DNA from: Balanoglossus misakiensis
Taxonomy: Eukaryota; Animalia; Hemichordata
DNA length: 64,000 nt
Assembly (NCBI GenBank): GCA_040954595.2
Contig: CM082590.2
Location: 4,774,001-4,838,000 of the forward strand
Direction of reading: 5' to 3'
Below, piece by piece: positions 1,931-39,709 of the stretch. Made by a program: the position numbers and the translations under genes. Within the stretch, counting starts at the first letter, position 1, and each line of letters opens with the position of its first letter. Under the pieces are notes generated by a model, which searched no databases, was not told where the DNA came from, and saw only the letters and a program-made list of their open reading frames with translations.

Positions 1931-2044
1931 CTTATTTTTGCAGTCAATATCAGCTCCATATTGCAACAATAGTTTCACAACTTTTCCATAATCCTTCCGA
2001 GACTCTTCACCCATTGCTGCCATGTGAAGTGCTGTGTCGCCATC
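1931..2044 (-). CDS. Ankyrin exon, gene 1 (DGDTALHMAAMGEESRKDYGKVVKLLLQYGADIDCKNK)
   Basis: 114 bp, tatag|GAT...AAG|gtacaa, phase 0-0; ankyrin consensus with a 5-aa insert. Confidence 0.88.
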
Positions 2045-5000
2045 CTATACAAGAAACAAAAACAGACAACATCATGTAAGAGGTACAACAAGAAAAGTTC
2101 TGCATAAACAGCTCAACCAAACATACAACCAACGTTAACACTGAATTGATAATTAACCTCTAGTTTTTCAACAGTATTTAGGATGCTTATATCATTTTTG
2201 AGTTGGATGTCTCCACGTCAATGTAGCTTTAAATAATTGAGTTGAATTCAATGAATGCATTGTGTGTATTTCGTCCACCATGTCAGAATGTTGAATTTCA
2301 GACAACAGATAAATTTCCTCATAACGATGAACAATTTAAAGAAAATATGGGTAGTAGATTGTGCCTTTATTCATCTTGACAGTTTTGAGGGAAAAACTGA
2401 TTTGGATCAATTTGTAAAGATCTGCATAAGACCAGAAAATTTACATGGATGGGAAATCTTTATTTAGACAAAAGACTAGAGATGACATTGATGACCATTA
2501 ATGTTCAGAAAGTGTTTGTTTGAGTAAAATACTGTGTTTTGATTCGCATAGAGCACCTAAGTTACTGGTATCATTATCAGAGGTACAGAACTTGTCTGTG
2601 GTCATCCATTATTATGAAGCAGTTTCCTTGTGAGTAATTTCTTGCCAACACCGTTCTGGTGAGTATTTCTGTATGTAATGGAGGAGGAGCATGAGAACAA
2701 TAACATTTGAAATGTTCTGTGAGGTTTCCTAAACGAACAAACAAACAAACAAACAAATATTCCTATACCGATAGAATTAACCTGCAGAAGCCAAGGTTGG
2801 TATTTACCTTGTTTTGTATGGTCACATCAGCTTTGTGTTCCAATAACAATCTGAGACCGCCTTCATTGTTATACTTTGCTGCATGATGCAAAGGGGTGTT
2901 TCCATCCTGTTTGTAATGGAGGAGGAGCATGAGAACAATGTCATGACATTTGAAACATACTGTTAGGTTTCCTAAACAAACAAACAAACAAACAAACAAA
3001 TAAATGTTTCTATACTAATAGAATGAACCTGCAGAAGCCAGGTTGGTATTTACCTTGTTTTGTATGGTCACATCATCTTTGTGTTCCAATGACAATCTGA
3101 CACAGCCTTCATTGTCAGACCTTGCTGCAGAGTGCAAAAGGGTGTCTCCTCTCTGTAAGTAATGAAGGAGGAGCTTGAGAACAATGTCATAAAATTTGAA
3201 ATGTAATGAGAGGTTTCTTAAAACAAACAAATAAATATAAAAATGTAATGTGAAGTGTAAACAAACAAACAATATATAAACCAACATATAAATAAATAAA
3301 ACTATCAAAAGTATCAGCCATATTGCAAAAACAACCAAGAATGGCATACTGACTGATTTGAAAGGATAATCCACAGTCCTTCAACACAAAATGAAAATTG
3401 CCGACTGTTAAAGTGAATACAGATTCAAGTATGACAGTGAAGAATCTCAATTGATTCTAACAGCGAGGAAAACACTTTGATCGGTGATATAGTTTTTGAA
3501 ATTGGATGTTTTAGTCTCCATAGCTTAGTTAGGGGTGGACCATTTGATATTCAGGGTGGGAGAGATCTGGAAGTTTAAAAAAAAAGATTGCCAGTAAAAT
3601 TTTAGAGATGGCTTGAAAACACAAACCACAAAAAAAATCCATAGAAATTTATTAATTTCTGGAACATATTTATTCATTCAGGCACAAACTGTGTCAACTT
3701 CTCTGGCCAAATTGTAAAGAGAGTTAAATTTAGAGTACAATGTTTCCTACTGTCCTTCCTATGGCTGGATCCCAAGGCTATCATGGTTATTAAAACTAAA
3801 TCAGTACGGGTAATAATTTTTGGATTTTCCCTCTTCTTGTTCAGGGGTTAGCTTGTTTCTTCCCACTGAATTTGGATCATGCAAAGTAATTTTGGAGGAA
3901 AATAAGATAGTGTTGTAATTAGGTCTTTTTAAAAGGCATTTTATAAAATTATTCATTTATGTTGCCACGTTATCCAAATGAAGTAATAAGTCAGTTCATG
4001 TACCTCATTCTTCGCATTGACATCTGCACCATGGCTAATCAACACCCTGACAGCATCCAATTGACCTCCCCAGGACGCTACATGCAATGCTGTGGAACCA
4101 TTCTGGAATGAAGACGTTTAAAGTTGGAATAAAAATGACATCACCAATCTGATACTTGAAATGTGGCAACCGCTCAATCTAATATTCATTTCTTGTTAAC
4201 AACAAGAAATGAATATTCACACACTCCTAGCAGCAAGATAAAGAATTTGACTCTACAAATAAATGTTTCATGATTTCCATCTGACTGTCAATTAAAGAAT
4301 CATCAAAAGTTTCCAATGTGGTCATGAAGTTGTAAGTACACGTGTAGCCACGTTATCCATCATGAATATATATTCCTTGCTGAAAAAAGAAATAGAATCT
4401 AATGATCTGTCAGTGAAAAGCTGTAAGGGGTTGTCAACAGATGGGGCTGCTGTCATGGTTGCCAGTAGAAGTGGTGTTGCAAGCAAATTTAAGTCTGACA
4501 ATAATTTGATCATTAGTGTGCATTGTGTTTGCCACAGGTTGGCATTGGCTTGTACTGACAGTAATACAAACATAAAGTATGTGAAGGATGTGTCCATAAT
4601 AATTTGGCAGCTTTGGCAGTTCTTTGAAAATTCCCCAAAGAGGTTAACAGCATTCCTGAAATGCAAGAAAAGCTTGCAAAAATAAAGTTAACCTCTGACA
4701 AGACAAGAGTCAGAAAATTGTCATGCACAGACTTAAAAAAGCTGGCAACACCAGGTGGTTGAGTTTCAATCTAGCTGTAGAGGCAACTCTGAGGGATTTG
4801 GAGGCATTGCTCCTTACTCTGAATGACTTTGAAGATGATGCACTTGCATGTGGCCTGCTCAAGAAAATAAAGTTGGTTAAATTTGTTGGCACATTGTATA
4901 TATTGCAGTCTGTATTGTCCATTTTGTCAGAGCTGTCTCTTGTGTTTCAAAGAGATCAAGTTAACTTCTCCCTCATTGCAAGCATGGTTTCAGCAACTAA

Positions 5001-6963
5001 AAATAAACTGAAACAGATTCTCAGACAATGTGCCAATAAAGAAGTTTGTGTCTGATATTGACTCATTCACAAATATATCTTCTGAGCTATGTTTCCAGGG
5101 CAGCGGCAAGCTTGATCTTGAAAGTCTGATGAGAAAGTACATTGGTGCTCTCATAGAGAATATAGATAGTAGGTTTGCTGAGTCATCTCCAGTGCTCACT
5201 GCACTGTCTGTCTTTGACCCATTGAGTATGCCAAGTAAAGAAAATGCAACTTTTAGTTCATATGGGGAAGCACATATCAAAGTACTTGCTGATCACTTTT
5301 ACCAAAATGAGGAAGTTGCTGTAAAAGAAAACAAAACACAGAAATTAGTGAAAGAGTTTACACAACTTAAATACTACTATGTAGATTACATGAAGGCAAA
5401 TATGCCTACTGATGTTGAGGAATGTAAAGGCACTGTTACACCAACTCAGTGGCTCTTGACTGAGTTAGTGAGATGTGACAGCTTAACCCCATTTTTCCCA
5501 GAGATAACTATAATAGCTGAAGCTGCACTCTGTGTTCCTGTGAGTAATGCTTGGCCTGAAAGGGGTGCAAGCACTTTGAAGAATGTCAAAACTAGATTGA
5601 GAAGTAGACTGTCAAGTGAAATGTTAGAATCTATAATGCATGTCCCCCAGTTGCCAGTGCTGAGGCAGAACAGATAATATCTCGAGCTGTAGAACAGTGG
5701 GAACAAGCCAAAAGTAGAAGATACCGCACAAAAGTACAGGTGCATGTACCATCATCATGTGTAGACAGTGACTCTGATGGTGCTCCAGGTGGGGCCATTT
5801 ATGCTGATGCTTCAGTGCAGGTTGATATTGAGGTTGAGACTGAGGAGGAAAGTGTTTCCATACAACATGAAGTTACAGAAGTGTCAAGTGCTTTAGGGTT
5901 ATCAGAGAACTCAGACCCAGATAGTGATTTTGAATTTGATTGAAGACTGTATTGTAACATGATACATAACTAGTGCTGTAATAAAAGGTTGAAACACTCA
6001 AATGAGTTTACGTGTATGTGTTTGTGTGTAGAATGAATTGGGGGGGGGGGGGGTTCAAAGGTCAACATGTCCCTGGCCCCCGCATGATTGGCCCCCTACT
6101 TTGCAACTATGACCCTCTACAGTGAAGCTTAGGAATAGCTTTCCAACTGCACCAACACTGGGTCAGCTCTGTTTAAACACTGGGTCAACTCTGGGTTGGC
6201 ACCCTATTGGCGCTCTAATTAGCACCTATTGGGCTTGTGTTTAACTGGGGTGTGCCAAAACAATAGGGTGCCCCAAGATTTCACACTGAACAATGCCAAG
6301 TGCCAGGGCCAACAGATTCACACCTTTGTAACACTTGTAACCCATGGGCTAACACTGTGCTGACCCATTATAAACACCATGTCAGCAAGTTGTTAGCAAA
6401 TTGGAAAGCTATTCCTAAGCTGTACTGTACTTCATATTTTAGTGAAACCCCTGTGAATTAATTAGTCAGTTCACGTACCCTATCCTGCGCATTGACATCT
6501 GCACCATGGCTAATCAACTCTCTCACAGCATCCAATTTACCTCTCCCGGACGCTTCAAGCAATGCTGTATAACCAATCTGGAATGAAGACGTTTAAAGTT
6601 GGAATAAAAATGACATCACCAATCTGATACTTGAAATGTGTCAACTGCTCAATCTAATATTCATTTCTTGTTAACAACAAGAAATGAATATTCACACACT
6701 CCTAGCAGCAAATGAAAGATCAAATTTGACTCTAGAAATAAAAGTTTCATGATTTCCATCTGACTGTCAATAAAAGAATCATCCAGTTTCCACTGTGGTC
6801 ATGAAGTTGTAAGTACACGTGTAGCCACGTTATCCATCATGAAGTAATAAGTCAGTTCACGTACCTCATTCTTCGCATTGACATCTGCACCATGGCTAAT
6901 CAACTCTCTCATAGCATCCAGTTGACCTCCCCTGGACGCTTCATGCAATGCTGTGGTACCCAT
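1931..6963 (-). CDS. Ankyrin-repeat gene 1 (partial, 3' end off-window), probable paralogue of the ROCO gene at 20351-38070; six phase-0 ankyrin exons
   Basis: Exons 6865-6963, 6479-6577, 4004-4102, 3054-3152, 2808-2906 and 1931-2044 are all AG/GT bounded, open, one ankyrin repeat each. Exon 4004-4102 shares TCCACAGCATTGCATGTAGCG (STALHVA) and HGADVNAKN with exon 33623-33721 of the ROCO gene. Confidence 0.8.
2808..2906 (-). CDS. Ankyrin exon, gene 1 (DGNTPLHHAAKYNNEGGLRLLLEHKADVTIQNK)
   Basis: 99 bp, acag|GAT...AAG|gtaaat, phase 0-0; TPLH motif. Confidence 0.9.
3054..3152 (-). CDS. Ankyrin exon, gene 1 (RGDTLLHSAARSDNEGCVRLSLEHKDDVTIQNK), tandem duplicate of 2808-2906
   Basis: 99 bp, ttacag|AGA...AAG|gtaaat; 246-bp exon+intron period; some framework changes (P>L, L>S, A>D). 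Confidence 0.8.
4004..4102 (-). CDS. Ankyrin exon, gene 1 (NGSTALHVASWGGQLDAVRVLISHGADVNAKNE)
   Basis: 99 bp, ttccag|AAT...GAG|gtacat, phase 0-0. Confidence 0.92.
4363..6453 (+). mobile_element. 5'-truncated, decayed hAT-superfamily DNA transposon (ZNF862-like transposase) in an intron of gene 1
   Basis: ORF fragments 4362-5943 with motifs STDGAAVM, HCVCHRLALAC, TRWLS and PVSNAWPERGAS...KTRLRSRL (hAT C-terminal dimerisation region), broken by stops and frameshifts. Right end ...gtgaaacccctg (CAGGGG terminus) at 6453. The empty site is visible in the sister intron near 6835-6860. Confidence 0.9.
6120..6427. mobile_element. MITE with TA target duplication (Tc1/mariner-pogo type) nested in the hAT 3' end
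   Basis: TA|cagtgaagcttaggaatagctttccaa...ttggaaagctattcctaagctgtactg|TA; 27-bp TIR with 2 mismatches. Confidence 0.85.
6479..6577 (-). CDS. Ankyrin exon, gene 1 (IGYTALLEASGRGKLDAVRELISHGADVNAQDR)
   Basis: 99 bp, ttccag|ATT...AGG|gtacgt, phase 0-0; cassette copy of 4004-4102. Confidence 0.9.
6865..6963 (-). CDS. Ankyrin exon, gene 1 (MGTTALHEASRGGQLDAMRELISHGADVNAKNE)
   Basis: 99 bp, ttccag|ATG...GAG|gtacgt, phase 0-0; 386-bp period from the previous cassette. Confidence 0.9.
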
Positions 6964-8628: not shown

Positions 8629-10238
8629 CAGTAAAACCTGTCAAAACCGGACCCTGGTAAAGCGGACCACTGTCCATACCGAACGATTTTTTCAGTCCCT
8701 GCCCACTCCCATAGACGCCCTGTGTTAAAAAACCTCTGCAGACCGGCCACTGTCTACTGTGGAAACCGGACGGGATTTCGAGCGAAAACCGGACGGAACG
8801 ACTTTTTGAAGACGGCATCTTTTCAAGTTTCTTTGTTCTTGCTACATTAAAGATATGATGAATCACTGTCTTTTGTCTTTGAGTTTTGTTTTGACCAATT
8901 TAACAAGCAATCAACGGCGTGGAGCTGTCACTCAAGCAAGGCGTGAACGCATTCTATTGTTCGACTCGTTTGTCGCATATTTTTGACAAGTGGAGTGTCA
9001 CCGCAGTAATGAGCTCTGTTGCCGGCTGATCAAACATAACGTTTCCCGGTGTCATTTTTTTCGGACGGTCAAAGCTATGAAGGCACATTCAATCAGAGTG
9101 ATGTGTGAAATTTTCGGGACATCAAACATACAGGAATGATAAAAGGAGACCCATTCCTTCGAATTTCACCACTTCGTGTTCGTTCACTGTACGAATCACA
9201 ACGCCGTCTCGCTCTCCATCAAACGTATTCAAATCAAATGATGTCTGCCCCACCAGCGAAGCGTAGAAGAAGAGAACTTACTCTTTCTGATAAGATTAAG
9301 CTTATCAAAGAGGCCGAGTCATCATCGCTGACGATGAAGAAATTAGGCGAAAAGTATAACATCGGAAAGTCAACCGTGTCCGACATCATCAAGAAGAAAG
9401 CCGAGTACGTCACGCAATTTGAAGCCAACGCTGATGCCAATCGACAACGCCTCCACCAGACAGAGAAGTTCCGTGAAGTAAACAGTTTCACGTGGGACTG
9501 GTTTCAGCAAGCGAGGGCCAAAAATATTCCAATTTCTGGTCCCTTGCTGCAAGAGAAAGCTTTATTTTTTGCCAGCAGGTTGCAGGTCCCCGACTTCAAG
9601 GCTTCGAACGGATGGTTGGAGAGTTGGCGAAGTCGCTACAACGTCAGGTCACTTAAGGTCAACGGTGAAAGTGCTGACGTCTCACAAGATGTTGTGGACG
9701 ATTTCCGAACGCGCCTGCCCATGCTGTGTGAAGGATTTGCACCGAGTGACATTTATAACTGCGATGAAAGTGGTGTGTTCTACAGGGCATTGCCAGATCG
9801 GACTTTAGCTTCCAGAACTGAAGATTGTAAAGGCGGTAAAGTGTCTAAAGAACGCCTTACAGTGCTGTTTGCCTGCAGTTTAACGGGTGACAAACTAACG
9901 CCGCTCGTGATCGGTAAAGCCGCGAAGCCACGCTGTTTTCGCAACATCGACATCGGCTCTCTACCTGTCACAAGAAAGCCTGGATGACAACCGTTCTATT
10001 CACCGAGTGGTTGCAAGATGTCAACTCTATGATGCGAAGGCGGAAAAGGAAGATTCTGATGTTTCTTGACAACTGTACGTCCCACGCTCCAGACATCAGA
10101 TTATCGAACGTAACTTTGAAATTTCTGCCTGCCAACACCACCTCGCGCTTACAGCCCCTCGACCAAGGAATCATCAGAGCTTTTAAGGCACGCTACCGAA
10201 AACACCTCCTACGGTCTGTTATCGCCAAGATTGACTCT
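8629..10238 (+). mobile_element. pogo/Tigger DNA transposon, 5' part (HTH_psq/CENP-B-type HTH + DDE_1 transposase, frameshifted near 9980, 3' end lost)
   Basis: Left end TA|cagtaaaacctgtc; NLS PAKRRRR; motifs LTLSDKIKLI, PISGPLLQEKA, FKASNGWLESW, IYNCDESG, KERLTVLFAC, LFLDN-like MFLDN, LPANTTSRLQPLDQGII. Confidence 0.93.
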
Positions 10239-11469
10239 GATTATTTAGTCATTATTGATTATTACTCAAAGTTCCCAGAAGTAATAAAGCTTCCAAACAA
10301 AACAGCGAATGCAGTTTTATCCACAACAAAATCTCTATTTGCTCGTGAAGGAATCCCTGATACTGTCATTAGTGATAAAGGTCCATGTGATGACAATCAT
10401 GTGTACCGTAAATTTGCTCATGATTGGGAATTTGACCACATCAAGATCAGCCCAGGTTATTCACAATCCCATGGTCAGGTTGAAAATGCTGTAAAATCAG
10501 TCAAACGTCTGATGAAAAAGGCATATAAAAGTGGTCAAGACCCCTATGTTTCATTGCTAGAGTTTCGCAATACTCCCCTAGATGGAACAAATGGTTTATC
10601 ACCCAGTCAATTGCTTAAGAGCAGAATCCTGAAGTCCAAACTTCCTACGGCGGAAAACTTGACAAAACCTCACATAGTTCCTCCCATGACAAATCACTTG
10701 AAAGCTAGACAGCTCAAGCAGAAATACTATTATGACAGAACAGCACGTCATAATATTCCACAGCCAGTCCCAGGTCAACCAGTCAGATTTCGTAACCCAC
10801 ATGCTAAATGGGAATATGGTGTTGTAAAGGAAACACTTCCACAGCCCAGATCTGTGTTAGTTGAAAGTCAGTCTGGAAAGGTGTACAAAAGAAATCGCAG
10901 ACATATGTATCCAACATCTGAAAACCCACCACTACCAGATTTACCTGATGTTGATGAATATCTGCAGGAATCTTGTTCCAAACCTGTACGAGTTTCCAAC
11001 CGTCTTTCTGAATCCACATTTTCACTCTCCACATACCACCCCACTCAACACTACTGCCCACACAAAACTCAAACATGATCAAGTGAAAATCCGACCGGAT
11101 ATCACTACTCGTTATGGCCGAGTATCAAAAGGAAAAGTTCAATTAGATTTGTAGTTTTCTGTGTTACAAAGAATTGACTTGCATTGTATTTGAGATACAA
11201 CTTCTTTGTATTCTTGTTCTGAACTATTTTCTGATTTCCAGAGTTATATAAGAAAAATGTCCACACATTGTCAAACATCCTGAATTGTTCACACTTGTAT
11301 TACCAGTCACCCATTTGTAAAAAAAGGGGCGTGTAATGTATGTTACTTTGAATGCCTTGTACATTACTATCTGTAATACTGCCCTCTATGTTGACTTATG
11401 GTAATGAAGTGAGTTGCCTCGTTTTGGCACTCTGTTGACTAGACAGGCGTGCGGAGTCCCAATACAACA
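10239..11469 (+). mobile_element. Gypsy/Ty3 LTR retrotransposon 3' fragment (integrase, PPT, 3' LTR)
   Basis: Integrase core YLVIIDYYSKFPEV...GIPDTVISD...QSHGQVENAVK...FRNTP...SPSQLL; typical terminal TRYGRVSK in a shifted frame ending 11154; polypurine tract aaaaaaaggggcg, then a TG...CA candidate LTR at 11332-11469. Confidence 0.88.
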
Positions 11470-12135: not shown

Positions 12136-12215
12136 GTGTGTAGGGTTAAGTACTTAGGGATTTGGGCGACAGGCAAAATCCTCAGTTTTTTAGGTTAAGT
12201 TTACATCACTTCTGA

Positions 12216-14115
12216 CTCACTTAGAGTGGGCCGATCTTTAAAGTGTAACGTGTTTTGCAATCGTCAATTACTGTTCTAAAACATGTTAAAGACTCGAGTT
12301 GGTATCTTTTAGAATAAATTAATAGGTTTGCTAAAAATAAAGTGATGTTTAAGTGATTCTTTTGTTTTTATGCATGTTAAAGAATAGGAGAAATTATAAT
12401 ATTTGTGACCCTATCCTGATTTGTACAATGAAAGTAGCTTGAGTACTGTTTTTTTCAGGATGTATAGACATTTGAATTCTCTATGCTATAGTACATTATT
12501 TTCTTTTTTATGTAGACAAGAAGTTATGAAACTGTAATTATGAAAAATAATGTCAGTGCCCCATAGGCTTTACCCTGTAGACAACAGGGTGTCATAGGTT
12601 AAAATTTTGGAAAGTAAGAAAACATGTTGTTTAAAGCTGGTTATTTTCAGAGTGTGTAAAGAACATGATGGGATACTCCATACATTTTTTTTAAGTTGTT
12701 ACATGTACAGCAATGCCAGTAGCTATTGAGTCAAAATAGGTAATTCATATATCTCATAATGACATTTTTGTTATATTGCCATGTGTTTGCAAAGTTGCTA
12801 TAAACACTTAGCATTGTCCAATTTAAAAACAGTTTTCTGTTTTGAAAAGGATATAATAAACTTCATAACAGATTGAAGAATCAAATTGATTGTGTTAGGA
12901 ATAAGGAAGCCGCATTGTTCCAAGAAAGGCGCTGTCAATCGACAAAGTAGACAATGCTGTTTGACCCCTTTAACAGCATATATTATCACACAAAATTGAC
13001 ATTGTTTGTACCACTCTGGTTTCTTATTTATTCAGCAATGAAGTTCTCACTTTAACAATATATTAAATACATAATGTTCTTTATAATACATATGAAACAG
13101 TTTTAAAATAGGATGATTCTAAGTGTTTAAACCAACTTTGCAAACATATATTGCAATATAACAAAAATATCATTGTCAGATTTATGAATTGCCTATTTTG
13201 ACTCAATACCAATTGGCATTACTCTTCATGTAACAACTTTAAAAAACATGTATGGAGTATCCCATCATGTTCTTAACACATTCTGAAAATAACAAGCATT
13301 AAACAACATGTTTTCTTACATTCCTAAACTTTTACCTATGACACCCTGTTTTCTATATTGTAAAGCCTATTGTTCACTGACATTTTGTTTCATAATTATA
13401 CTTTTATAACTTCTTGTCTACATTGTCTCATTTAGAGTGGGCCGATCTTTAAAGTGTAATCTGTTTTGAAATCGTCCACTACGGCTCTAAAACATATTAA
13501 AGACCTGATGTGGTATCCTTAAGAATAAATTAATATTTGTGCCAATAAAAAATTGATGTCTAAGTGATTCTTTTGTTTTTATGCATGTTAAAGAATAGTA
13601 CAAATGATAAAATATAAGACCCTACCCTAAGATATACAGTGGAGATTAAGTACTGATTTTTTCATGAATAATAGACATATAAATTCTCTATTCTGGAGTA
13701 CATTAATATTTAATCAATGTAGACAAGAAGTTATAAAAGTATAATTATGAAACAAAATGTTTGTGCCCCATAGGCTTAACACTGTAGGAAACCAGGTGTC
13801 ATAGGAAAACATTTAGGAAAGTAGGAAAACATGTCGTTTAAAGCTTGTTATTTTCAGAGACTGTTAAGAACATGATGGGATACTACATACATTTTTTAAA
13901 GTTGTTACGTGTACAGTAATGCCAGTAGCTATTGATACAAACTAGGTAATTCATAAATCTCACATGGACATTTTCGTTATATTGCCACTTTATTTTTGGC
14001 ACACCAGTTGATTTATTCTTGAAGATTTCACATCGGGTCTTCAATATGTTTTAGAGTAATGATTGGCGATCTCCAAACAGGGTACACTTTTAAGATCGAC
14101 CTACTCCAAGTGTGT
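12216..14115. repeat. Cluster of direct and inverted copies of a roughly 570-bp AT-rich repeat
   Basis: 12216-12790 matches 13426-13990 directly (ttagagtgggccgatctttaaagtgtaa...); 13135-13422 is an inverted copy of about 12500-12795; 14020-14115 is an inverted copy of the unit start. Confidence 0.8.
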
Positions 14116-14197
14116 AAAATCTGATTTAATAACATGCATCCACTGTTCATGTAATACATGGGCAAGTTTAAATTAGGGACCAGTGTTTATCACTTAC

Positions 14198-14369: not shown

Positions 14370-15530
14370 TATTGAGTGATTGGCTAATCAAGCTAACAAG
14401 GCGTTGACCCTGCTGTCAGTTGCCAGGTGGAAACTAGGGTATTTGCAATTTGAATGTCACTTCAAGGTGTTTGATGCCATGATCTTACCAATTCTCTGTT
14501 ACGGATCGGAGATTTGGGGTTTTCAGTTTTATGACATCATAGAAAAAGTGCAAAGAACATGGTGCAGAATTTTTCTAGGTGTGCCAAGGAGCACTACCAA
14601 TGAAGCTGTGATTGGAGAATGTGGGCGGTTGCCAGTGTATGTTCACACAATGAAACGTTGTATTCGTTACTGGGTGAAACTTTTTGAGATGCCACAGGAA
14701 AGACTCCCTAGGCAAGCATATTTAATGCTATGTAATCTTGACCGTTTAGGCCGTCACACCTGGGCAACATCGGTGAAACACATTTTATTTTCATATGGGT
14801 TCGGGCACGCCTGGATTTCCCAGGAAATAGGCAATAAGCGTTTGTTCCTTTCAGCATTTGAGACAAGAATTTCAGATATTTTGAAGCAACAATGGAAGTC
14901 CCACTGTTCGTCCAAAACCAAACTCCGTACATACACACTTTTTAAATCATTGTTACAGCCTGAAAAATATCTCAATGTCAACTGTACATGAAATGTCAAA
15001 CAAATTTTTGCATGTTTTCGCTGTTCTGCCCTTCCTCTTGCAATAGAGGAGGAAAGAGATCTGAACGTGGACGTTTCAGAGAGACACTGTAGGCTATGCT
15101 CTGGTGAACAAATAGAAGACGAGTATCACTTTTTACTTGTTTGCCCCTTATATGATAATCTTAGAAAACAATATATTGGTGACATTAAGAATATTAATCC
15201 TCACTTCCAAATGTTTGTAAACTTCATGAGTGCATCAGAATCCTCCAAGATTCTTTCGCTATGTAATTATGTTTACAATGCTTTTAAACTTAGAGAAACT
15301 GTGTTAAAAAAACATGAATGCATACAATAAGCTGTTAAGTTCCTCACTTTGTATCCTGAGTATGTAATTCCACACATTTGCTTTTTGATGTTGTCACTTG
15401 TACTATTTGAGTACATGTATTATTTAATTCATTTTTGTACAATCTTCTGATTACCTTTATACCCCCTTGCTTATGGGCTGGAGGCCTTGGAAAGCAATAA
15501 ACGTGCACTGTTGTGCACCTGAACTGAACA
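14370..15530 (+). mobile_element. 5'-truncated non-LTR retrotransposon (RTE-X-like LINE), ORF2 C-terminus and 3' UTR
   Basis: FDAMILPILCYGSEIWGF...ECGRLP (post-RT region); C-terminal CCHC finger ERHCRLC...EDEYHFLLVC; stop at 14991; 3' end aataaa followed by ctgaactgaac. Confidence 0.85.
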
Positions 15531-15791
15531 ACAACAACAACCAGACAAACAAACAATCAATCAACAACAAAAACATAATTATTCACCCCAGGAAAATCAG
15601 TTTAGAGCCAAAAGTACTATTTCTTCTCTATAATCAGAAAAGTTGTTTGTACTTAGTTGAGTCATCAGCCTTTATATTCTGGTTTAGAAAACCGGAACAT
15701 ACGAGCATGTTTCCCCATTCTGAGCGTTTATGGCCTTTAAATTTTCACAATTGATGGTGCTGGACATACACTGAATAAATTCAGACGTTAC

Positions 15792-16202
15792 CTGCATCTG
15801 CAGTGCAGTTCTTCGTCCCTGCCTGAGCAGCAGTGGTACCAAAACCAGCACAGGCCACGTTGCTGGTGACGTCATCATCCGTCACTGTGATTGAACCACA
15901 GACTTTGGTGTAGGCGGCGCACTTAGCAGCGTCGAGGGTAAGTGACGCGACTAGATCGGCGTAGCTTCCGGACACCGTTACTGCTGTCCCGCCAGGTGCT
16001 TTGCTCCCAGTCGCGGTCACTTCGGTTGATTTCGTGGAGCCATCGGCATTGCTGAAATACACTTTGACGTCACTAGGCGACCCGCCATTTCCAGTTACTG
16101 TATATGCCAATGTGAAAGTGGTGGGGACGGCTTCTCCAACGCGGAATACCCCACTTGCAGGAGCAGGCGATGTTACCGTCAATGTCGAAGCAGCAATATC
16201 AT
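15792..16202 (-). CDS. Orphan phase 1-1 exon encoding a 137-aa Thr/Ala/Ser/Gly-rich beta-sandwich-like extracellular-type domain with 4 Cys
   Basis: Polypyrimidine acceptor tcttcctttttag|AT GAT ATT, donor G|gtaacg; 411 bp open and GC-richer than its flanks; motif KCAAYTKVCGSITVTDDDVTSNVAC...GTKNC. Confidence 0.75.
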
Positions 16203-20350: not shown

Positions 20351-21589
20351 CTATTCCAGAGAGTCGTAATCTGTGGCTGCTGATTGTTCCTTGCTATGGC
20401 TTGACACACCCAGCCTTTTGAACATTTCATGGATTACACCCTGGGCATCTGGTCTGCTTCTTTCTTTCTGGTTCAATGCTGACAACAAAGAGGAGAAATT
20501 ACTCCGATAGAATTTCTTTCCTTCTGTTGACACTGCACTACGGAGTGTACCATCTGCGCTCCTTTTAGACCACTCGGATATGACGAACAGTGTCATTGAC
20601 ATCGGTTTGTCTTCCCAACCTTCAACTTCCTTGTACCAGATCCCCAACATGTCTGCCAAAGCTTTGTAGTCAAAACCAATGGGTCGTCTGACATCCATTA
20701 ATATGGCGAACTCTTTGAGGGCATCCTTCAGCATCCACTTGACATCACTTTCATATCCATATTTATGGAGGAATGTGATATCATATCCAGCACAGAGCAA
20801 GTCAGTGACAGCTTCTTCTTGACCTGTTTGCTCATCATACACTCCACTTCCATTCTGCTCAGCTTCTGTGATTTTCTGCATTGGGTAGAATCTGACATTC
20901 TCTGGGTTGCTGTGAATTCGCAGCGAGTGGGCGCTGAGAATATGGGTGTCGACCTCGATACCCGGACAGCAGATCTCTATGACGTCATAGATATCATTGG
21001 TCACCATTTCCAGTAACTGGTAACACGCCCCTATGTCTTCTCCCTTTTCTGCTCTGACACAGGTGTGGATTGCCGTCCATCCATCTGTCATGTACACCAA
21101 TCCTTCTACGATGTGGCAGACTTTGATACCATTCTTCCATATTCCACTGGGAGGGTAACCCATTTCCTCAAAGTGACGGTAGAGCCTGGTCTGTAGGCGT
21201 GGGAACAAACCTGGTGTGAAGCTGTCTGTTTCATCATGGCATTCGATTCTTCTACCAAAATAGTGATGCTTAGTTGGACCCGATTCCCATTGATTTGCTG
21301 GCATTTTATCTTCCAAGAGTCCAGGGATGATGTAAGATTTTGGATTGGACTCATCTTCATGGAGAAGCTCAAAATGCTTGAGAAGAGCCATGACTAAGTT
21401 GGCATCACCGTAACCACTGAATACTCGAGCGATTTCCTCCTCGTTGTAGAACTTCTGATTTTTCTGCAGTTTGTCGCTGTATTGAACGAAGATATCAGTT
21501 GCCATCAGTCGACCCAAGATTTCTGAACACAACCATTGACCATCAAGAACAATGATATCATCACCAAGTGGATTCTTGACAAAGATAAT
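20351..21589 (-). CDS. ROCO terminal exon: COR domain and death domain (412 aa + stop)
   Basis: ORF 20351-21610; acceptor ttgcag|ATT; WLCSEILGRL, YIIPGLL, FGRRIEC, death-domain helices. Confidence 0.95.
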   Translation of the reverse strand: MIFVKNPLGDDIIVLDGQWLCSEILGRLMATDIFVQYSDKLQKNQKFYNEEEIARVFSGYGDANLVMALLKHFELLHEDESNPKSYIIPGLLEDKMPANQWESGPTKHHYFGRRIECHDETDSFTPGLFPRLQTRLYRHFEEMGYPPSGIWKNGIKVCHIVEGLVYMTDGWTAIHTCVRAEKGEDIGACYQLLEMVTNDIYDVIEICCPGIEVDTHILSAHSLRIHSNPENVRFYPMQKITEAEQNGSGVYDEQTGQEEAVTDLLCAGYDITFLHKYGYESDVKWMLKDALKEFAILMDVRRPIGFDYKALADMLGIWYKEVEGWEDKPMSMTLFVISEWSKRSADGTLRSAVSTEGKKFYRSNFSSLLSALNQKERSRPDAQGVIHEMFKRLGVSSHSKEQSAATDYDSLE

Positions 21590-24500
21590 CTGCAACAAAC
21601 AAGAAGACAATGAAATAAACTTAAGATGTTAACAAACGTTGATTGAAAGAAAATAGTATATTGATCGATGAGATGTAAATGGTGGATGACCGAATAAATC
21701 AATGAATAATGATGGTTGATGTATGTATGTATGTATGTATGTATGTATGTATGTATGTATGTATGTATGTATGTATGTATGTATGTATGTATGTATGTAT
21801 GTATGAATGTAGTATGTATGTATGTATGTATGTATGTATGTATGTATGTATGTATGTATGTATGTATGCATGTATGAATGTAGTATGAATGTAGTATGTA
21901 TGTACGTACGTATGTATGTATGTATGTATGTATGTATGTATGTATGTATGTATGTATGTATGTATGTATGTATGTATGTATGTGATGGTTGGTGGTGGAT
22001 GGATGGTTGGATGGGATGGGTCAAAGGGATGGACGGATTGAGTGATTCATTGATATATGTCTGACTGACTGTCTGGCTGGATGTATAATATGCATTAAAT
22101 ATGTGAGGTGTAATGACAGACACTGATTGGGTGGCCGGATTGGTGGATGAACTATTTGCTGTGTATCTACATTTACCTCGCCAATGCTATCCAGGTAAGA
22201 TGTAGCTATTCTCAGAAAGGGCTCTTTAACCAATGGATCAATTTCCTTTACTTTTTCCACATACGTCTTCCAGTACTGGACAGGAAATTTAAGAAGCTCG
22301 TTACGCCATATTCGCTTCTTGTCCACAATTTCTGCACATAACCTTGGTATTTTTTCTTTCTTCTGTAATGCAATGAAGGAATGGAAAATTTTGAAGAATA
22401 GCCATATTTTCAAATCATACATTCAATGAACTCAGCCATGGAAAATGGGACCAAAGACCATTCCTAACATGTCACATGCAATATAAAAGATATATTGCCG
22501 TCAACATGCCATTACATAATGCTTTTTCATCACTTCTGAACATCTGGAAACTTTCAGTAATCATACCTGTGTTGGTAAGTGTGTATACAACCATCACCAA
22601 CACCAAGAATATGCCCTTAGTATTTGGTGCATTTATATATTATGTTACTACATAACTTGGTTCACTGAGTGAACATGTGGTAAGCAGAAAGGGGATGAAA
22701 GTAGGGAGAAATATTTACAGGAAAAACTGCATACAGATGAAGATTTGATCGGAGTGAGTAATCTAACCTGGCCAATTGTTGTGAGAAATGTTGGATCGAT
22801 CACTCCCATTGAAATTATCATTCTGCTGTAGTGTTTTTATCATTTTTGATTTGACAGATATTAAAATCAATATGATATAAAAATAGTTATGCATTTATGT
22901 TAAACTCACCTTGAACCCACGTAAGATCACACGTAGTCTGCCCATTGCTTCACTTTGAGATTCATGACAATTTACCAAAACTGTCTCATCCACAATATTC
23001 AAATAATCGCCAAATTTCTTCTTCAACTCTTTGCGTACCTTTTCTACAACCCATTTGGCTATAATAGAAAACATAAAATAAACAAATGGGTTATGGTAAT
23101 TACGGATGTACGTGCAAAACGTAAACTGGTAGACTGCGTGAACTTATGGGCATGTCACCATTCCTATGAAATAGAAAAAAATGGGTATTGGGATTTAACT
23201 AGTATTCAAAGTAGGCACCTTCTGACTAAAAGATTGTAAGTAATTATGTCAGATCTTTTGTAAAAAAAAACATTATCGTGCATCTCCTTACAATGTACTG
23301 CTACTTATTGAATAAATACCATCAACATTTGAATGCAGAGACAGATTTGACCAAATTAATATTGGTTTTACATGTACATGCTAGATGGTGTGTGTGCATG
23401 TACCAGTGTGTTTAACAGTATATGCATGTTGTAACTGCAATCAAACTAATTTACTTACCACTCTCTTGTTGAGATTCATCCAACATATCAGCTCTACTTG
23501 CGATCAATATCACAGTTGGTTTGGTGTCTTCACTCCGAGACGAAGCATCATCACTCTTTGGGATGCTGCTTATCATGCCTTTGAAGAACTGGGCCCATAA
23601 GTTGGTCTGTAAATTATCACAATTAATTAATTTCCCAATTACAATCAATCAATCAATCAATCAATCAATCGATCAATGCAATTAATTAATCAATTAATGT
23701 TTTGTGTAATGCAAACATTATTTATAGCTAATGGGCTAGTTTAAATGTAACACAAGTATTTATTTATTAGCCATTCTCAAATGACTAGTTCCATATTTGG
23801 ACATGCATGTAGTCGGTTAAATTTGACATACTTTACAGTTTCTATTTCGTTCTGGTGTGTTTGTGTGTGAAGGGTCATGTCTCACCTCTTTCAGTGCTTG
23901 TTCCAACATCTCTATAGGCTTCTTCAAATGTTTTGGGTCATCTTTCCCCATTTCTGTTATTTTAAACAGAAGCATAAACACAGCATCTTCTGCTCTCAGG
24001 AAAATGTTGTGTGTCACGTAGTACTCACACTGTCCAGCAAAATCCATGACAATGTATTCTCCAACGTTTGGTATGTCGACAGTTTTTACATCAATACCTG
24101 GTGTTGGTGTGTACTCAGTCTTGTCCGGTGGAGGCGGCTTTTCTTCAGCTCGTCGAGTGAAATACGCTTGCCAGAAGCCCTGTATGAAAGTGGTACACAC
24201 AAAACTGCAGTAAGCGTTTGTGTTGACAGTGACTCTGATGGGCGAGTAACACCATCTGTATCATTTAAAGGGACAAAGTCTCTCTCTCGCTGCCCCTTTT
24301 CTGTGAATTATGTTGGATACAAGACACCGTTTATGTTATTCTCCATGTGGATATATCGTGAATCAATGTTTGACAACAAAAATTTCATCCCGTTTGTTGG
24401 ATATATGAGCACAAACTTTGCCAAAATGAATAAATGGTAAAGACCATTTATTCATTTTGGCGAGATTTTAACTCTCATATTCTACAAACATGATGGAAGG

Positions 24501-27500
24501 TGTGTGTGGTCAAACGTTGATATAAAATATATCCACTTGTAGAATTTTAGAATATTACAATATTCAGAAAAAAGTTCATAAGTGAATAATTTCATAGCAT
24601 CATTGCAATAGATAAATAATAAATAAATAACAAACTTGAAACATTGATGAATCAGTCGAAGTGGAAAACAGTGACAATAAAATGTTTGACAAAGATATAA
24701 GTTCAAATATGAAAATCATTGTTACCCGTTGCAAAGATTTCACAAGGGTTGTCTTTCCAACACCACCAAATCCACAGACATGAACTCTGCTACTATTTCG
24801 GGTGATGCCTGGTTCTCTCATCAAAACACTGAATTCAATTTTCCTCTGTTCGGCCTGATGTTAACAAAAAGAACAACATTAACAACAGTCAACAGCATTC
24901 TCAGAAGACTGGCCGAATATTGTCAAAATGGAATGTGATATCAAATGAACACTACACTGCATTAATGACAAAATTTGGCTATGACAGCCTCGTATTTAGT
25001 GTACTTAAAGGGACAAAATCTCCCTCACTGCCCCTTTTCCATTAATTATGTTTAATACAAGACACTGTTTAGGTTAATGTACATGTGTATATGTAGTGAA
25101 TCAATATTCGACCACACACACCTTTCATCCTGCTTGTAGACACGAGAGTGAAAAACTCGCCAAAATGAATAATTGGTGTTTACCGTTGATTCATTTTGGG
25201 GAGATTTTTACTCTCATATCCTACAAAGGGGATGGAAGTTGAGTGTGGTCGAACGTTGATTTAAAATATATCCACTTGTAGAATAACATAAACGGTGTTT
25301 TGTATCCAACAAAATTAATGGAAAATGGCAGTGAGAGAGAGACTTTGTCCCTTTAATTCAAAGAACCAAGTAGAGTGATAAGTCTGGTGTGTAATGCATA
25401 TGTCAAAATGCAGCGATTATGAATTGTGGATGAAACACTCAATAAGAACGATGATACATGTATGTATCATTTATTGGTAACAGAAAGTTGAAAGTAACAA
25501 TAGTATTGTCAGTATTGTCAACAAGTGAACAAGTTCCTATTAAAATCACCAAAGTAAGGAGTACAATATTTTAGACCAACCAATTAATGTAAATTAAACG
25601 AACATATAGCCACAGCAATGGTTTCACTTTGAAATTTAAATTAGAGTGTACAAAGAGGTAAAAACTAATCTCCACTCTCCAAATTGTTTCTTTCAGTTTT
25701 TGTTCTGGATATGAATTACCTGATCTCATTGATGGTTGTATTACAAGTAATAGTGTTCCTTTTGAATATGACAGTTACTTGTATTTATAGGAAATATTAC
25801 CTTCAGCAGGGATTTGACTCTTCTGTCGTCTGCATAATCCATAGGTGTCTTTCCTACCTGTAATGTGGAGTAAAGATTTTAAGCCCATTGATATGATTTG
25901 GTTAAAACTGCTTCATGACGTTTTATGTACAACGGAATCTTCACAAATCTACTATTTGCAAAATATGCTTTGAGTATCGGAATGTGACAGTCGGGACAAT
26001 TTTCATGGTTTTCTAGTGTTACACTTTAACGAGTCTCGTGGCGTTGAGATTGTGCGCGAGGGTGTCTACTTTGATTAACACATTTCTCAGAATGCCTCAC
26101 TAATCTCTGCAAATAAAAATGGCTGCTATGGATAATAGTTAAGCGAGTTTCACTGACAGTACAGTTTCTACTAGTATAATGGTGACAGTACATATTTTGT
26201 GCGAGAGAGGGTGGTGTCAGAAGGACTGACATGAGACGACATTATGAAAGTGATAGTTCGACTCGGCGAGCAAACGTGATAGTACACGCATCATATCATC
26301 AGTAGGAATGCCGCATTCGAGCCGTTTGGATCCCTGATCCAAGTCGCACCCACAATGCACTGCTGTTGAAGTGGGGCGGCATAACAAAAAATTTCATATC
26401 GATTGTGCATTTTGTGATAAAAGCTCAGATGGGTGTTAATGTGTAATTAACTCCATCGGCCATGTAACGCCGGGGACACATAGACTTGTATGCAGGGCTA
26501 GGAACACACATTCATGTACGCACAGACACATACAACACAACCCAACTCAGAACTCAGCACTCGGCATGAATTGAACGAAGAAATAGCTCCAGCAAAGCCA
26601 AAGGGATGACCGTATGTACATGTATACTCATACACATTTGAATGTCAAGTTTGCATTGTTTTTACGGCCGCCAAGCAGAAAATTCGTTTCGGGATTTTGA
26701 CAAATAACATCGGAGAGGGCAAGTGACAGGCAAACATCAGAAAACAGATTATGTCTCATGACACACAGGGACAGTGTGATTTTCAACATTACCTACACAG
26801 TCATAAATTTCGACAACGTGTGGTGGGAAAGTATTTATAATAAAATTAGACATGACCACAGCAACACGTGGCAAAGGCAAGCCAAGTTCTGACATGAATA
26901 TTGCGATCGTACTGGTGAATTTTACGGCTTCCCAGCAGCCAGCAATCTAGACTTATCAACTGAAGACCCATCTCCGAAAAAGTTATTATTTTCAGAAATT
27001 TGCACTTAGTTTAATTCCACTTTCCTCATGCAACGGAAGATGTGGAATGTTTTAAAAAATCTATGCTTTTCACTAGCTTCCGCCCATTTGCATAATACGC
27101 CCTTTACGGTAACAACAAACTGTACCCGGAAACGCATACACTAAATGATTTCATGTCTTCTTAGAAACACAGAGAAAAAACTGCCAGATTTGATCACCCT
27201 GAAATTTTACCCATCCTAAATGCAAAATACATAATTAATTCATCAAGCCATCGACCGACCTCATTATGGCAAGTTTCTACGGCAGTTTTAGCCTAAGTCG
27301 CGAAACTTGGATTGAGCATTGTTTGAATCGTGAACTGGTAGCATAGGTCACACTATATAGAGATTACTCGATACTAGTATACTCATGTCATCAATGGTGC
27401 AATTCAATTGCTGTCATGCCCGTCTACGCTATGGTGGGCTGTTTCATTCATTCTAAAAATGAATCTTAAAATCTAACTTCAGGGATTTGTGGGTACATTT

Positions 27501-30500
27501 TCATCAACAAACATTTAGCGGCAAGACGAGTGCTTCCGTTTACATGTAAAGTTTTATAACCAGTATATTTTAATACAAGATGGCAGGCTAAATATTTATT
27601 GATCAGTACTGAAATAGAGGATTTCTTCCATGCTTATATCAGTGAGAGGGGTTCTGATGTATTTGACCTAGACTATGATACATATTAATATTTACAATAA
27701 TATAAATCTGCTGAACTTGATCTCACATTCAACAAAACAAACAAATTAATTTCACTTTTTAAATCATGACAAACTGTGCTTTTAAACAAACAATACATTG
27801 AAATATATTTTTTTACAGAATCCATAATTAACAAGACAGGCTGTCATTGGTAAAAATAGGTTGTAAAGTTTGAGTCGTTGGAAACATGGCAGAGGGATAG
27901 TCGTCAACTATTTTTATATTGAACTAATTTCAAAAATGTGTGATAATGATAATAAGCCGTGTCAACTGATGTGTGAGTGTAGAATAGAATTAGCGTGATT
28001 ACAGTAACTTACTTTATCCTTCACATCGATGCTGGCATTGGATTGCAGTAGAAGTTTCACCACGCCACCACGGCCATATCGTGCTGCATGGTGTAACGGT
28101 GCCCAACCATACTGTGGGAATACAACAAAAAGGTGTCACTGAAAATCCCTGACTATAAGTGTATAATGGAACACGCAATGTTTCATTAAGCATGCACTGT
28201 TACACACATTCTGAAACATTCATTTTAGAGATGGCATAACATGTTTTGCCGACGACTTTTTTTTTTTTTGGGGGGGGGGGGTAAATTGATAGTAGGATAC
28301 ATCCCAGTCCCCCACGTAATGGACATAAATGCATGATGTGGTGATAGGGCTCTGACCTTTGAGGGTACATTAACATCACAGGTATTCGTTTACTTGAGAT
28401 TTGTGATACGCGCGTCTGTTGTTTTCAGTTGAAGATACCCTCTGTACAATACCTCAAACTGACAATGATCTAAATATTATAAAAGACTAGACAGCAGTTT
28501 CATTACCCTTTGAAAGAGCATTGAGATGAGCCAATCAAAGAACACCAATTATGAATCACAGGTAAGAAATATGCGGAACCACTGTTGACATTCAAATGAT
28601 TATGGTGGACTTCAGCCTGACAGCTTTTTTTAGTCTTGCCAGCCAGACCTCTCTCTCTGTCATTCAATGGCATAGCCACACGAAGTGCGCCACGAGCGGT
28701 GAAGACACACGAATCGAACATCGGAGACAACGTCGCCGCTTGTGGCGCCCTTCGTGTGCCTGGCCGCGACGTCGACGGATAGCGAGGTCTGTCAGGCAAG
28801 TAGTCTCGGTTATCCAGAGCCCTTTGCTTCTTCCGTTGGGCACTGCAAATAGAGGGTCTGGGGAAATACCATAGACAAATCTGCGCCGGGCAAAGATGGC
28901 CGACTTGAGACAAAAAGCGATGCAGAAGCGGTCCAGAAATATCATGCAAGGGGTGGAGGGAACAGCGTTCAGCCGTCTCGATGGACTCTTGCACGCTCAA
29001 ATGACGGATGCAACGCACTGAGTGTGTAATGTGTTGAAAACTGCATCTGCTGGCTCTGAACCTTTAGCGCAACCAAAGTAATCTAAGTAATTAATGCATC
29101 GGTACACACAAACATACGACACAACCCAACACAGAACTCAACACTCGGCATGAACTGAAAGCAGCAAATGCTCCAGCGAAGCCAGAGTTATGACCGTATG
29201 TACATGTAGACTCATACACATCTGAATGTAAAGTTTGTATTGGCTTTATGGCTGCCAAATGGAAAGTTTTTTTAAGGGTTTTGACAAATATCTTTGGAGT
29301 AGGCAAGTGACAGGCGCGCATCAGGAAACTAATTATATCTCATGAAACGCGGTGACAGTGGGATTTTCACCATTACCTACACAGTCATCAACTTCGACAA
29401 CATGTGGTGGGAAGGTATTTAAAATAAAATTAGACATAACCACAGCAACACGTGACAAAAGGCAAGCCAAATTCTGACAGGATCATTGCGATCGTACTGT
29501 TGAACTTGTAGGGCTTCATCCTCCCGCCGGTGGAACAGCTGCATTTCCACAGCTACTGAAGATACAACTCCGAAAAAGTTGGGTTTTCAGAAATTTAATT
29601 CCACTTTCCTCGTGCAACAGAAGATTAAGAACGTGTTTTGCTTTCCAAAAATCTACGCTGGACGCCCATTTGTATAATACGCCCTTTACGGTAACAATTA
29701 ACTTTACCCGGAAACGCCTACACTAGATGATTTCATTTCTTCGTACAAACACAGAGAAATAAACTGTCAGGTTTAATCCCCCTGAAATTTTTCCTTGCCT
29801 CAATGCAAAGTACAGAATAATTTTTCAAGACATCGACCGACCGTGTTATGGCAAGTGTTCACGGCTGTTTAGCCAACATCGCGAAACTTATTATAGGCTT
29901 ATATTGAGCATTCCATTTGTGAACAGATAAACTGTTAGGCGTGGGTCACACTATAAATGGCTCACTCGATATACTCAAAAGTGAATTCGTTCGTCTAAAA
30001 ATATATGTAACCCGGTTTACAAAATAAACCATGTGATAGTCATGTGATATACTGTCCCAAGGGAGGATCATTTCCCTCCAAATAGGGTCACGTGATAAAA
30101 GTTTCAGTCACGTAATGACTTTTCCTATATTAAACAATGTGAGACCGACAAGTTTTAGCCCGTTGATGGTTAACACTTCTGTGGACAAAGTGTTTGAAAT
30201 TTGCAGCGTTTCTTGTTAGGGAATGGCCCAGAGACGGTGTGGTTGGTCTTTCGAACAGTTTTATTTGAAACCTACAGGTACGTTAACTCATTCTTTGTGA
30301 TGCAGAATCGAGCATCTCTCTCTCGCTGCCCTTTTCTTATTAATTTTGTTTGATACAAGACACAGTTTACGTTAATGTACATGTGGATATACAGTGAATC
30401 AAAGTTCAACCACACACAACTTCCATCCGGTTTGTAGCATATGCGATTAAAAATCCAGCCCAAATGAAAAAATGGTAAACACTGATTATTCATTTTGGCG

Positions 30501-39422: not shown

Positions 39423-39709
39423 AGGCAACAGTCTCAAGAGAACGGTGAAGAAATGCAATGAAAGTATCACCACGTGAATGTTTGTCCAAACTGTGTGAGC
39501 AAGTTATTGTGTAGCTGTAGTAGTGTGTGGGTCGCGTGACAGCTTTGTATACCTTGTCGCTGATGTGCTTCCCAAGAAGCATTTTTGACTGTTTGATAGG
39601 GCTTGCATAATTTCCATAAAAGAAATGTGAACAAGGTTATGGTCAATTGACTGTCCAACTACTCTATTGTTATAGTCTACAGATTTGGGATGTCGTCATG
39701 TTGGTCAGA
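39423..39709 (+). repeat. 285-bp direct repeat, copy 2, at the left border of the large array
   Basis: Matches 35851-36135. Confidence 0.92.

Follow-up and report, generated by a model that had tools for sequence, protein, structure and literature searches.

Likely positive selection on the binding-surface codons of tandem ankyrin exon cassettes in an acorn worm

The stretch analyzed here, 64,000 nt from the acorn worm Balanoglossus misakiensis (contig CM082590.2; hereafter the window), contains part of a gene, gene 1, in which short ankyrin exons have been copied together with their introns, and the question that this locus raises is whether the copies have merely drifted apart or have been driven apart at the surface with which ankyrin repeats bind their ligands. 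An earlier note on this DNA had proposed the latter. Our favored reading, which we hold with moderate confidence, is that gene 1 carries tandem cassettes whose surface has been positively selected, and that they likely form the front end of a kinase-less intracellular sensor of the ankyrin (ANK)-ROC-COR-death type, with a probable immune role.

Divergence of the gene 1 cassettes

The gene 1 exons studied are all on the minus strand and span 1931-6963. They and the cassette introns used for comparison are as follows.

6865 to 6963, minus strand: ankyrin exon, type A, copy 1 of 3 (99 nt, phase 0-0, Pfam Ank E 1.3e-9)
6578 to 6864, minus strand: complete type-A cassette intron (287 nt, by sequence comparison)
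6479 to 6577, minus strand: ankyrin exon, type A, copy 2 of 3 (99 nt, phase 0-0, Pfam Ank E 4e-8)
4103 to 4366, minus strand: what remains of the other type-A intron copy, used as the reference for exon 4004 (by sequence comparison)
4004 to 4102, minus strand: ankyrin exon, type A, copy 3 of 3 (99 nt, phase 0-0, Pfam Ank E 8.6e-11)
3054 to 3152, minus strand: ankyrin exon, type B (99 nt, phase 0-0, 21.8 bits against 39.6 for its twin 2808)
2808 to 2906, minus strand: ankyrin exon, type B (99 nt, phase 0-0, Pfam Ank 39.6 bits)
1931 to 2044, minus strand: long ankyrin exon (114 nt, with 5 additional residues; Pfam match and alignment to relatives)

All six exons are ankyrin repeats according to Pfam, with AG/GT ends kept and frames open, and for the five one-repeat exons of 99 nt and phase 0-0 the positions, ends and stop-free frames given by the earlier note are exactly right. 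The type-A unit, an exon of 99 nt and an intron of 287 nt, repeats in tandem every 386 nt, and the type-B unit of 246 nt is present in 2.3 tandem copies, the last of them without an exon. Since each cassette brings its own intron, the locus has a built-in neutral yardstick, and selection becomes measurable from very few copies.

The surface positions were set beforehand from a published ankyrin library design, in which positions 2, 3, 5, 10, 13 and 33 correspond to exon codons 33, 1, 3, 8, 11 and 31 (PMC4308713), and library-randomized positions of this kind make up the concave binding face (PMC4308713, PMC8683736). To these we added codon 12, which varies between chains of designed ankyrin repeat proteins (DARPins) aligned to exon 4004. 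With codon 12, which we take to be position 14 of the classic library, the surface set comprises 7 codons, or 21 nt per exon, and the remainder 78 nt.

The surface codons change 3-12 times more than the introns copied alongside them: 9/21 surface against 10/286 intron positions differ in the pair 4004/6479 (p=3e-7), 9/21 against 4/95 (p=2e-5) and 5/21 against 7/114 (p=0.02) in the second and third comparisons within the type-A trio, and 8/21 against 27/229 in the type-B pair 2808/3054 (p=0.004), while the three-way comparison of the trio gives 11/21 against 7/95 (p=7e-6). In no pair do the remaining 78 exon nt depart significantly from the intron rate (p 0.12-1), and the surface excess persists with the six published positions alone, as well as without the 37-nt intronic hairpin described below. 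Measured against the exons' own silent sites, the ratio of non-synonymous to silent changes per site (pN/pS) at the surface is 3.8, 5.5, 2.6 and 8.4 (p 0.03, 0.009, 0.2 and 0.005, from rounded counts), and that of the framework in the type-A trio is 0.4-0.8. The proposal that diversification is directed at the ankyrin binding surface is thus upheld, the surface rate exceeding that of the introns and, in three of the four pairs, that of the silent sites; so is the concentration of changes at library-randomized positions, with all 7 surface codons found among the 12 variable codons of the trio (p=1.9e-4). Tolerance alone cannot make codons change faster than the neutral yardstick, and the counts are therefore best explained by positive selection, which is likely to have acted on the binding-surface codons of the gene 1 cassettes. 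We also considered deaminase-like hypermutation, and rejected it in the absence of its signature among the surface changes of the trio (4 transitions, 6 transversions and 1 three-letter site).

The earlier note had argued from whole exons, and its counts proved exact on recounting: 15/99 nt differ between exons 4004 and 6479, with 11 of 13 changed codons non-synonymous; the corresponding shares are 10 of 11 for 6479 and 6865 and 11 of 12 for 2808 and 3054; and 2/134 nt differ between introns 4103-4236 and 6578-6711. Those 134 nt are the best-kept stretch of the intron, all alignable intron of this pair giving the 10/286 used above, against which the whole exon, at 15/99, is still faster (Fisher p=1.8e-4). 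The claim that exons diverge faster than their introns therefore stands for 4004/6479 but fails for 2808/3054, where the whole exon (15/99) is no faster than its flanking introns (27/229; p=0.47). High non-synonymous shares such as 11/13 are unremarkable, since about three-quarters of sites are non-synonymous. Finally, codons 21-30 do lack changes, as the note had observed, but we rejected their invariance even at silent sites as evidence, because these codons hold only 6.7 silent sites, for which invariance has a chance of 0.6 at the intron rate.

Part of this DNA is also found in another sample, represented by three DNA runs that all come from one sample and one study, with word shares of 0.45, 0.39 and 0.06; the sequencing-run search gave DNA runs alone, with no RNA run among the listed matches. 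As its sequences differ from the window, this sample is not the window's haplotype. In total, 111 and 128 contigs were aligned to 427 nt around exon 4004 (their summed depth was not taken as copy number), giving 35 listed variants, of which 23 lie within the exon, spread over 18 places; when each letter is changed singly, these are 18 missense, 3 silent and 2 stop variants, each of the latter probably pairing with a neighboring change. Variable places make up 11/21 surface nt, 7/78 other exon nt and 5/63 of the nearest intron nt (p=4e-5), such that, in keeping with the earlier proposal, the surface clustering recurs among copies in another sample (11 of the 18 variable exon places). In two contigs the unit is repeated head-to-tail every 384 nt, confirming that type-A units stand in tandem. 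With regard to repeat number across individuals, this sample has many variant copies as well as the head-to-tail unit, in contigs too short to split alleles from paralogues.

Further features lie between the exons of gene 1.

6656 to 6692, minus strand: 37-nt near-perfect inverted repeat in the type-A intron (predicted hairpin, z -3.9)
4367 to 6463, plus strand: insertion of ~2.1 kb between the second and third type-A exons (Dimer_Tnp_hAT E 8e-8)
4181 to 4217, minus strand: 37-nt inverted repeat in the second type-A intron copy (predicted hairpin, z -3.3)
2669 to 2700, minus strand: leftover acceptor of the third type-B unit (no ankyrin exon behind it; the frame runs into stops)

The inverted repeat is the same in both type-A intron copies and sits ~80-115 nt ahead of the acceptor, where, going by the predicted fold, it may affect splicing or may be a neutral palindrome. 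The insertion carries the broken remains of a hAT transposase together with a small inverted-repeat element and has left the splice sites intact; by sequence comparison, it split the 6479/4004 intron later than the cassettes were copied. The acceptor at 2669-2700 is likely to be the remnant of a lost type-B cassette. It looks intact, and the splice from 2808 to 2044 must bypass it, its use leading to a stop. Among the exons themselves, 6479 has Leu in place of the conserved His at codon 7, and 3054, which has the weakest Pfam score of the gene 1 exons and a framework altered at codons 5, 21 and 26, is possibly decaying. Gene 1 leaves the window beyond the long ankyrin exon at 1931-2044, and the intron after this last visible exon holds a satellite at 1-1679 (225-nt period, 7.5 copies, 97% matches).

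Gene 2 and its family

The ROC-COR-death module of the window is part of gene 2, the upstream neighbor of gene 1.

20351 to 38070, minus strand: gene 2, a complete ANK-ROC-COR-death gene (11 exons, 842 aa, no internal stop)
38041-38070, 35483-35581, 33623-33721, 28013-28111, 25801-25857 and 24726-24854, minus strand: gene 2 exons 1-6 (gene model)
23886-24179, 23459-23606, 22910-23058, 22177-22362 and 20351-21589, minus strand: gene 2 exons 7-11 (gene model)
33623 to 33721, minus strand: the single type-A exon of gene 2 (DNA 72-73% identical to gene 1 exons 4004 and 6865)
20393 to 20752, minus strand: death domain predicted in gene 2 (residues ~12-131 of the model, best match the MyD88 death domain)

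Gene 2 begins with a start exon of 10 codons, followed by three full ankyrin exons and a half repeat, and then by ROC and COR. It qualifies as a ROCO gene, with a ROC GTPase ahead of COR: its open 842-aa chain contains P-loop and G3-type motifs; the Pfam match to COR-B lies above the cut-off (E 5.5e-7) and that to Roc, on one exon, below it (E 0.002), and gene 2 corresponds exon by exon to relatives with full Roc and COR matches. The short start exon is charged, and from its sequence the product is predicted to be cytosolic. The C-terminus was modeled as a six-helix bundle with a predicted local distance difference test (pLDDT) value of 81.7, and all 11 structural matches at Z >= 8 (among 48,161 chains) are death domains, the best being that of MyD88 (Z 11.0, root-mean-square deviation 4.5 over 104), with Pelle also among the best. 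Neither Foldseek, run on this model at E <= 0.001, nor Pfam Death gave a match, and the C-terminal death domain is thus a prediction of the structural model.

The kinase DAPK1, a conserved single gene, also has an ANK-ROC-COR-death architecture, and gene 2 shares this domain order. Gene 2 has no kinase domain, the start exon leading straight into the ankyrin exons, and we rejected its identification as DAPK1 on the lack of this N-terminal domain; no kinase family was found in two relatives scanned with Pfam. In contrast to DAPK1, the genes studied here form a kinase-less, expanded family with recently duplicated and hypervariable repeats. The expansion is indicated by the 25 database matches to the last exon of gene 2 (12 of 2727 and 13 of 2289 candidates), all from acorn worms and 18 of them from Ptychodera flava. 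Apart from one match, the "DAPK1-like" database proteins of Ptychodera, Saccoglossus and Glandiceps have 38-59% identity over this exon.

That gene 1 belongs to the same ANK-ROC-COR-death family is supported by the type and order of its repeats. Type A is the second repeat of the acorn-worm relatives and type B corresponds to their middle repeats; the order A, B, long is that of the kinase-less ANK-ROC-COR proteins of Ptychodera, and the long repeat aligns gap-free to the final repeat ahead of ROC in two Ptychodera relatives among the 25 proteins. As repeat type and order are shared with these relatives, gene 1 is likely the front end of a paralogue in which the normally single type-A exon has been tripled. 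Among the close repeats of the relatives, 98 of 184 differences in the Glandiceps protein P0007 fall at the 7 surface positions (0.53, against 0.21 expected), and a share of 0.56 does so in P0002 (0.21 expected). With the ankyrin region of P0005 as the query, the hits were generic ankyrin proteins of many taxa (7906/7981 candidates), and this search was uninformative.

Elsewhere in the window, a broken Tc5/pogo-type transposase (CENP-B, HTH, DDE_1) and an integrase fragment lie at 8640-11100, upstream of gene 1, where its first exons are expected. These are followed at 12200-14130 by AT-rich repeats, inverted as well as direct and nested in one another, of 570-930 nt and 77-85% identity, likely foldback elements or elements of the miniature inverted-repeat transposable element (MITE) type, and at 14380-14991, on the plus strand, by a 203-aa frame without a Pfam match that by eye resembles the end of a reverse-transcriptase reading frame of a long interspersed nuclear element (LINE). 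Between the two ankyrin genes, at 15790-16200 on the minus strand, is an exon-like frame of ~137 codons, rich in Thr, Ala and Gly and with several Cys; it has no Pfam match, its Atlas look-up scores are all 0.80 or less, and it is likely part of a gene for a small secreted protein. At 39500-63100, multi-kb segments occur in 3 to 9 copies, with identities reaching 95-100%, and contain few long open reading frames; a stretch near 39480-39700 recurs, by eye, near 35870-36130, inside the first intron of gene 2.

Proposed mechanism and competing explanations

In the mechanism that we propose, the one-repeat, frame-neutral ankyrin cassettes, which have been gained and lost in tandem with their introns, would change in number through unequal crossing-over; point changes on the concave face would be favored, with framework and intron drifting at the background rate; and a ligand bound to the ankyrin stack would switch the ROC-COR dimer, exposing the predicted death domain to adaptors in defense. 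The switching step draws on general knowledge of ROCO and death-domain proteins. An immune role of such a sensor is probable, and we infer that the cassettes could be spliced in a mix-and-match manner.

A number of observations weigh against this reading. The selection test comprises five exons, the three pairs within the trio are not independent, and the method was counting rather than a codon model (PAML/HyPhy). The surface excess relative to silent sites is not significant for the pair 4004/6865 (p=0.2), and against the older type-A copy of gene 2 the surface ratio is 0.9-1.8, with no excess. Over whole exons, pN/pS is 0.9-2.1 in the type-A trio and 3.3-4.0 in the type-B pair, in no case significant (p 0.08-0.6), and we rejected whole-exon dN/dS as proof of selection as being too weak. 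In the other sample, one cut-off applied at all places leaves 4/21 at the surface against 5/97 (p=0.052) or 7/298 (p=0.003); the variant table omits variants below 3% of summed depth, and depth is higher over the framework, such that rare framework variants are hidden; and common variants at codons 2, 14 and 32 fall outside the surface set. Among the relatives, the shares of differences at the 7 positions in the Ptychodera proteins P0003 and P0005 are just 0.33 and 0.32 (0.21 expected). As for gene 1 itself, its ROC half would lie beyond the window; neither a first or N-cap exon nor a match to the first exon of gene 2 was found between 7036 and 20350, and searches of 1-20300 for N-cap, start and half-repeat exons came back empty, although a short or diverged first exon could escape them. 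The framework damage in exon 3054 and the transposon remains upstream speak further against a working gene 1.

These last points make up the case for the rival that survives best, which we nevertheless consider unlikely: selection did shape the surface diversity, but gene 1 has since become a 5'-broken relic or a donor pool, with the working members elsewhere. The interval without an N-cap exon or a gene 2-like first exon holds the Tc5/pogo-type and integrase remains, and the framework changes of exon 3054, the lost His of exon 6479 and the leftover acceptor at 2669 fit such a history. Decay is harder to reconcile with six exons that all keep their AG/GT ends and open frames and with the trio's framework ratio of 0.4-0.8, and the missing front may be a short or diverged exon, some gene models of relatives also being without an N-cap.

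Rather less probable still is that the same evolution serves another job, namely self/non-self, gamete or symbiont recognition, or a decoy or guard function, in place of direct pathogen sensing. Fungal ankyrin receptors of this regime serve non-self recognition and cell death (PMC4986451), and ROCO proteins have many non-immune roles (PMC11378527). The expanded family, the surface-directed change and the predicted death domain with its likeness to MyD88 and Pelle instead fit host-pathogen conflict, and the short charged start exon and predicted cytosolic location of the gene 2 product would suit gamete recognition at the cell surface poorly.

The weakest rival, which we regard as improbable, holds that there was no selection for novelty, gene conversion having evened out introns and framework or imported patches from paralogues around surface codons that are merely tolerant; the many variant copies in the other sample (111 and 128 contigs on 427 nt), the interleaving of copy-specific sites along the exon, a silent divergence in the trio (0.09-0.13) somewhat above that of the intron (0.035-0.06), and the choice of library positions partly for their variability across natural ankyrins (PMC4308713) all agree with it, but tolerance cannot exceed the neutral rate, whereas the surface stands at 3-12 times the introns and 3-8 times the silent sites, imported patches would bring neighboring silent changes, yet the trio shows no difference at codons 4-6 and 9-10, and sparing just seven scattered codons would itself require selection. 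The three rivals overlap in part.

Known systems and what the locus means

Taking these alternatives into account, the selected sensor front end that we favor has its closest parallel in the LRR-ROCO genes (LRR, leucine-rich repeat) of the brown algae Ectocarpus and Saccharina (PMC3341825, PMC11378527). Shared with these are a ROC-COR core preceded by a repeat sensor, exons of the same phase that each encode one repeat and are gained and lost in tandem, selection on the concave face (here from counts against intron and silent sites) and a proposed immune role; alternative splicing of the repeat exons is reported for the algal genes (PMC3341825, PMC11378527). The algal exons encode LRRs and are 72 nt long in phase 2, whereas the ankyrin exons here are 99 nt long in phase 0, and gene 2 is further set apart by its predicted C-terminal death domain and its animal lineage. 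We rejected membership in the algal family itself because the sensor is built of ankyrin and not of leucine-rich repeats.

Fungal NLRs with highly conserved ankyrin repeats (Podospora; PMC4986451) likewise have near-identical repeats of changing number, with sites under positive selection in the inner helix and the beta-hairpin. In those proteins, however, C-terminal repeats accompany a NACHT/NB-ARC ATPase, as opposed to N-terminal repeats and a ROC-COR GTPase here, and in gene 1 each repeat is its own exon, copied with its intron. Membership in this group was rejected, as the neighboring gene 2 and its relatives have ROC-COR and no NACHT/NB-ARC. ROCO-type immune proteins, but not the present family, are mentioned for bacteria and Aplysia (PMC8195603, PMC9334734). 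Designed libraries (ANK-N5C, PMC4308713; DARPins, PMC8229355, PMC8683736) have, as here, a constant framework in which the beta-turn and the first helix vary and supply the binding surface, with the difference that they are randomized in vitro, while the diversity of gene 1 is germ-line and evolutionary. In a literature search that largely excluded subscription journals and did not extend to supplements, we found no paper that deals with ankyrin-ROCO genes in hemichordates or with ROCO genes built from ankyrin exon cassettes.

A bolder extension, which we consider speculative and rather unlikely, is a natural DARPin library in acorn worms, perhaps also in other ambulacrarians, in which arrays of frame-neutral ankyrin exons with a selected binding surface would be skipped, combined and swapped between loci to give many intracellular receptors per animal on a shared ROC-COR-death switch, perhaps with the intronic hairpin before each type-A exon aiding exon choice. 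If true, a deuterostome would have an anticipatory immune repertoire built on neither Ig nor LRR domains.

The locus suggests that an invertebrate closely related to chordates has an expanded and so far undescribed family of intracellular sensors, best read as an animal, ankyrin counterpart of the brown-algal LRR-ROCO genes. The design of a ROCO core, one repeat per exon and a selected concave face would then have been reached with a different repeat, and ROCO proteins, the functions of which are mostly unknown, would gain a testable role in recognition. In these cassettes, natural selection would have varied the very positions that engineers randomize in ankyrin libraries.

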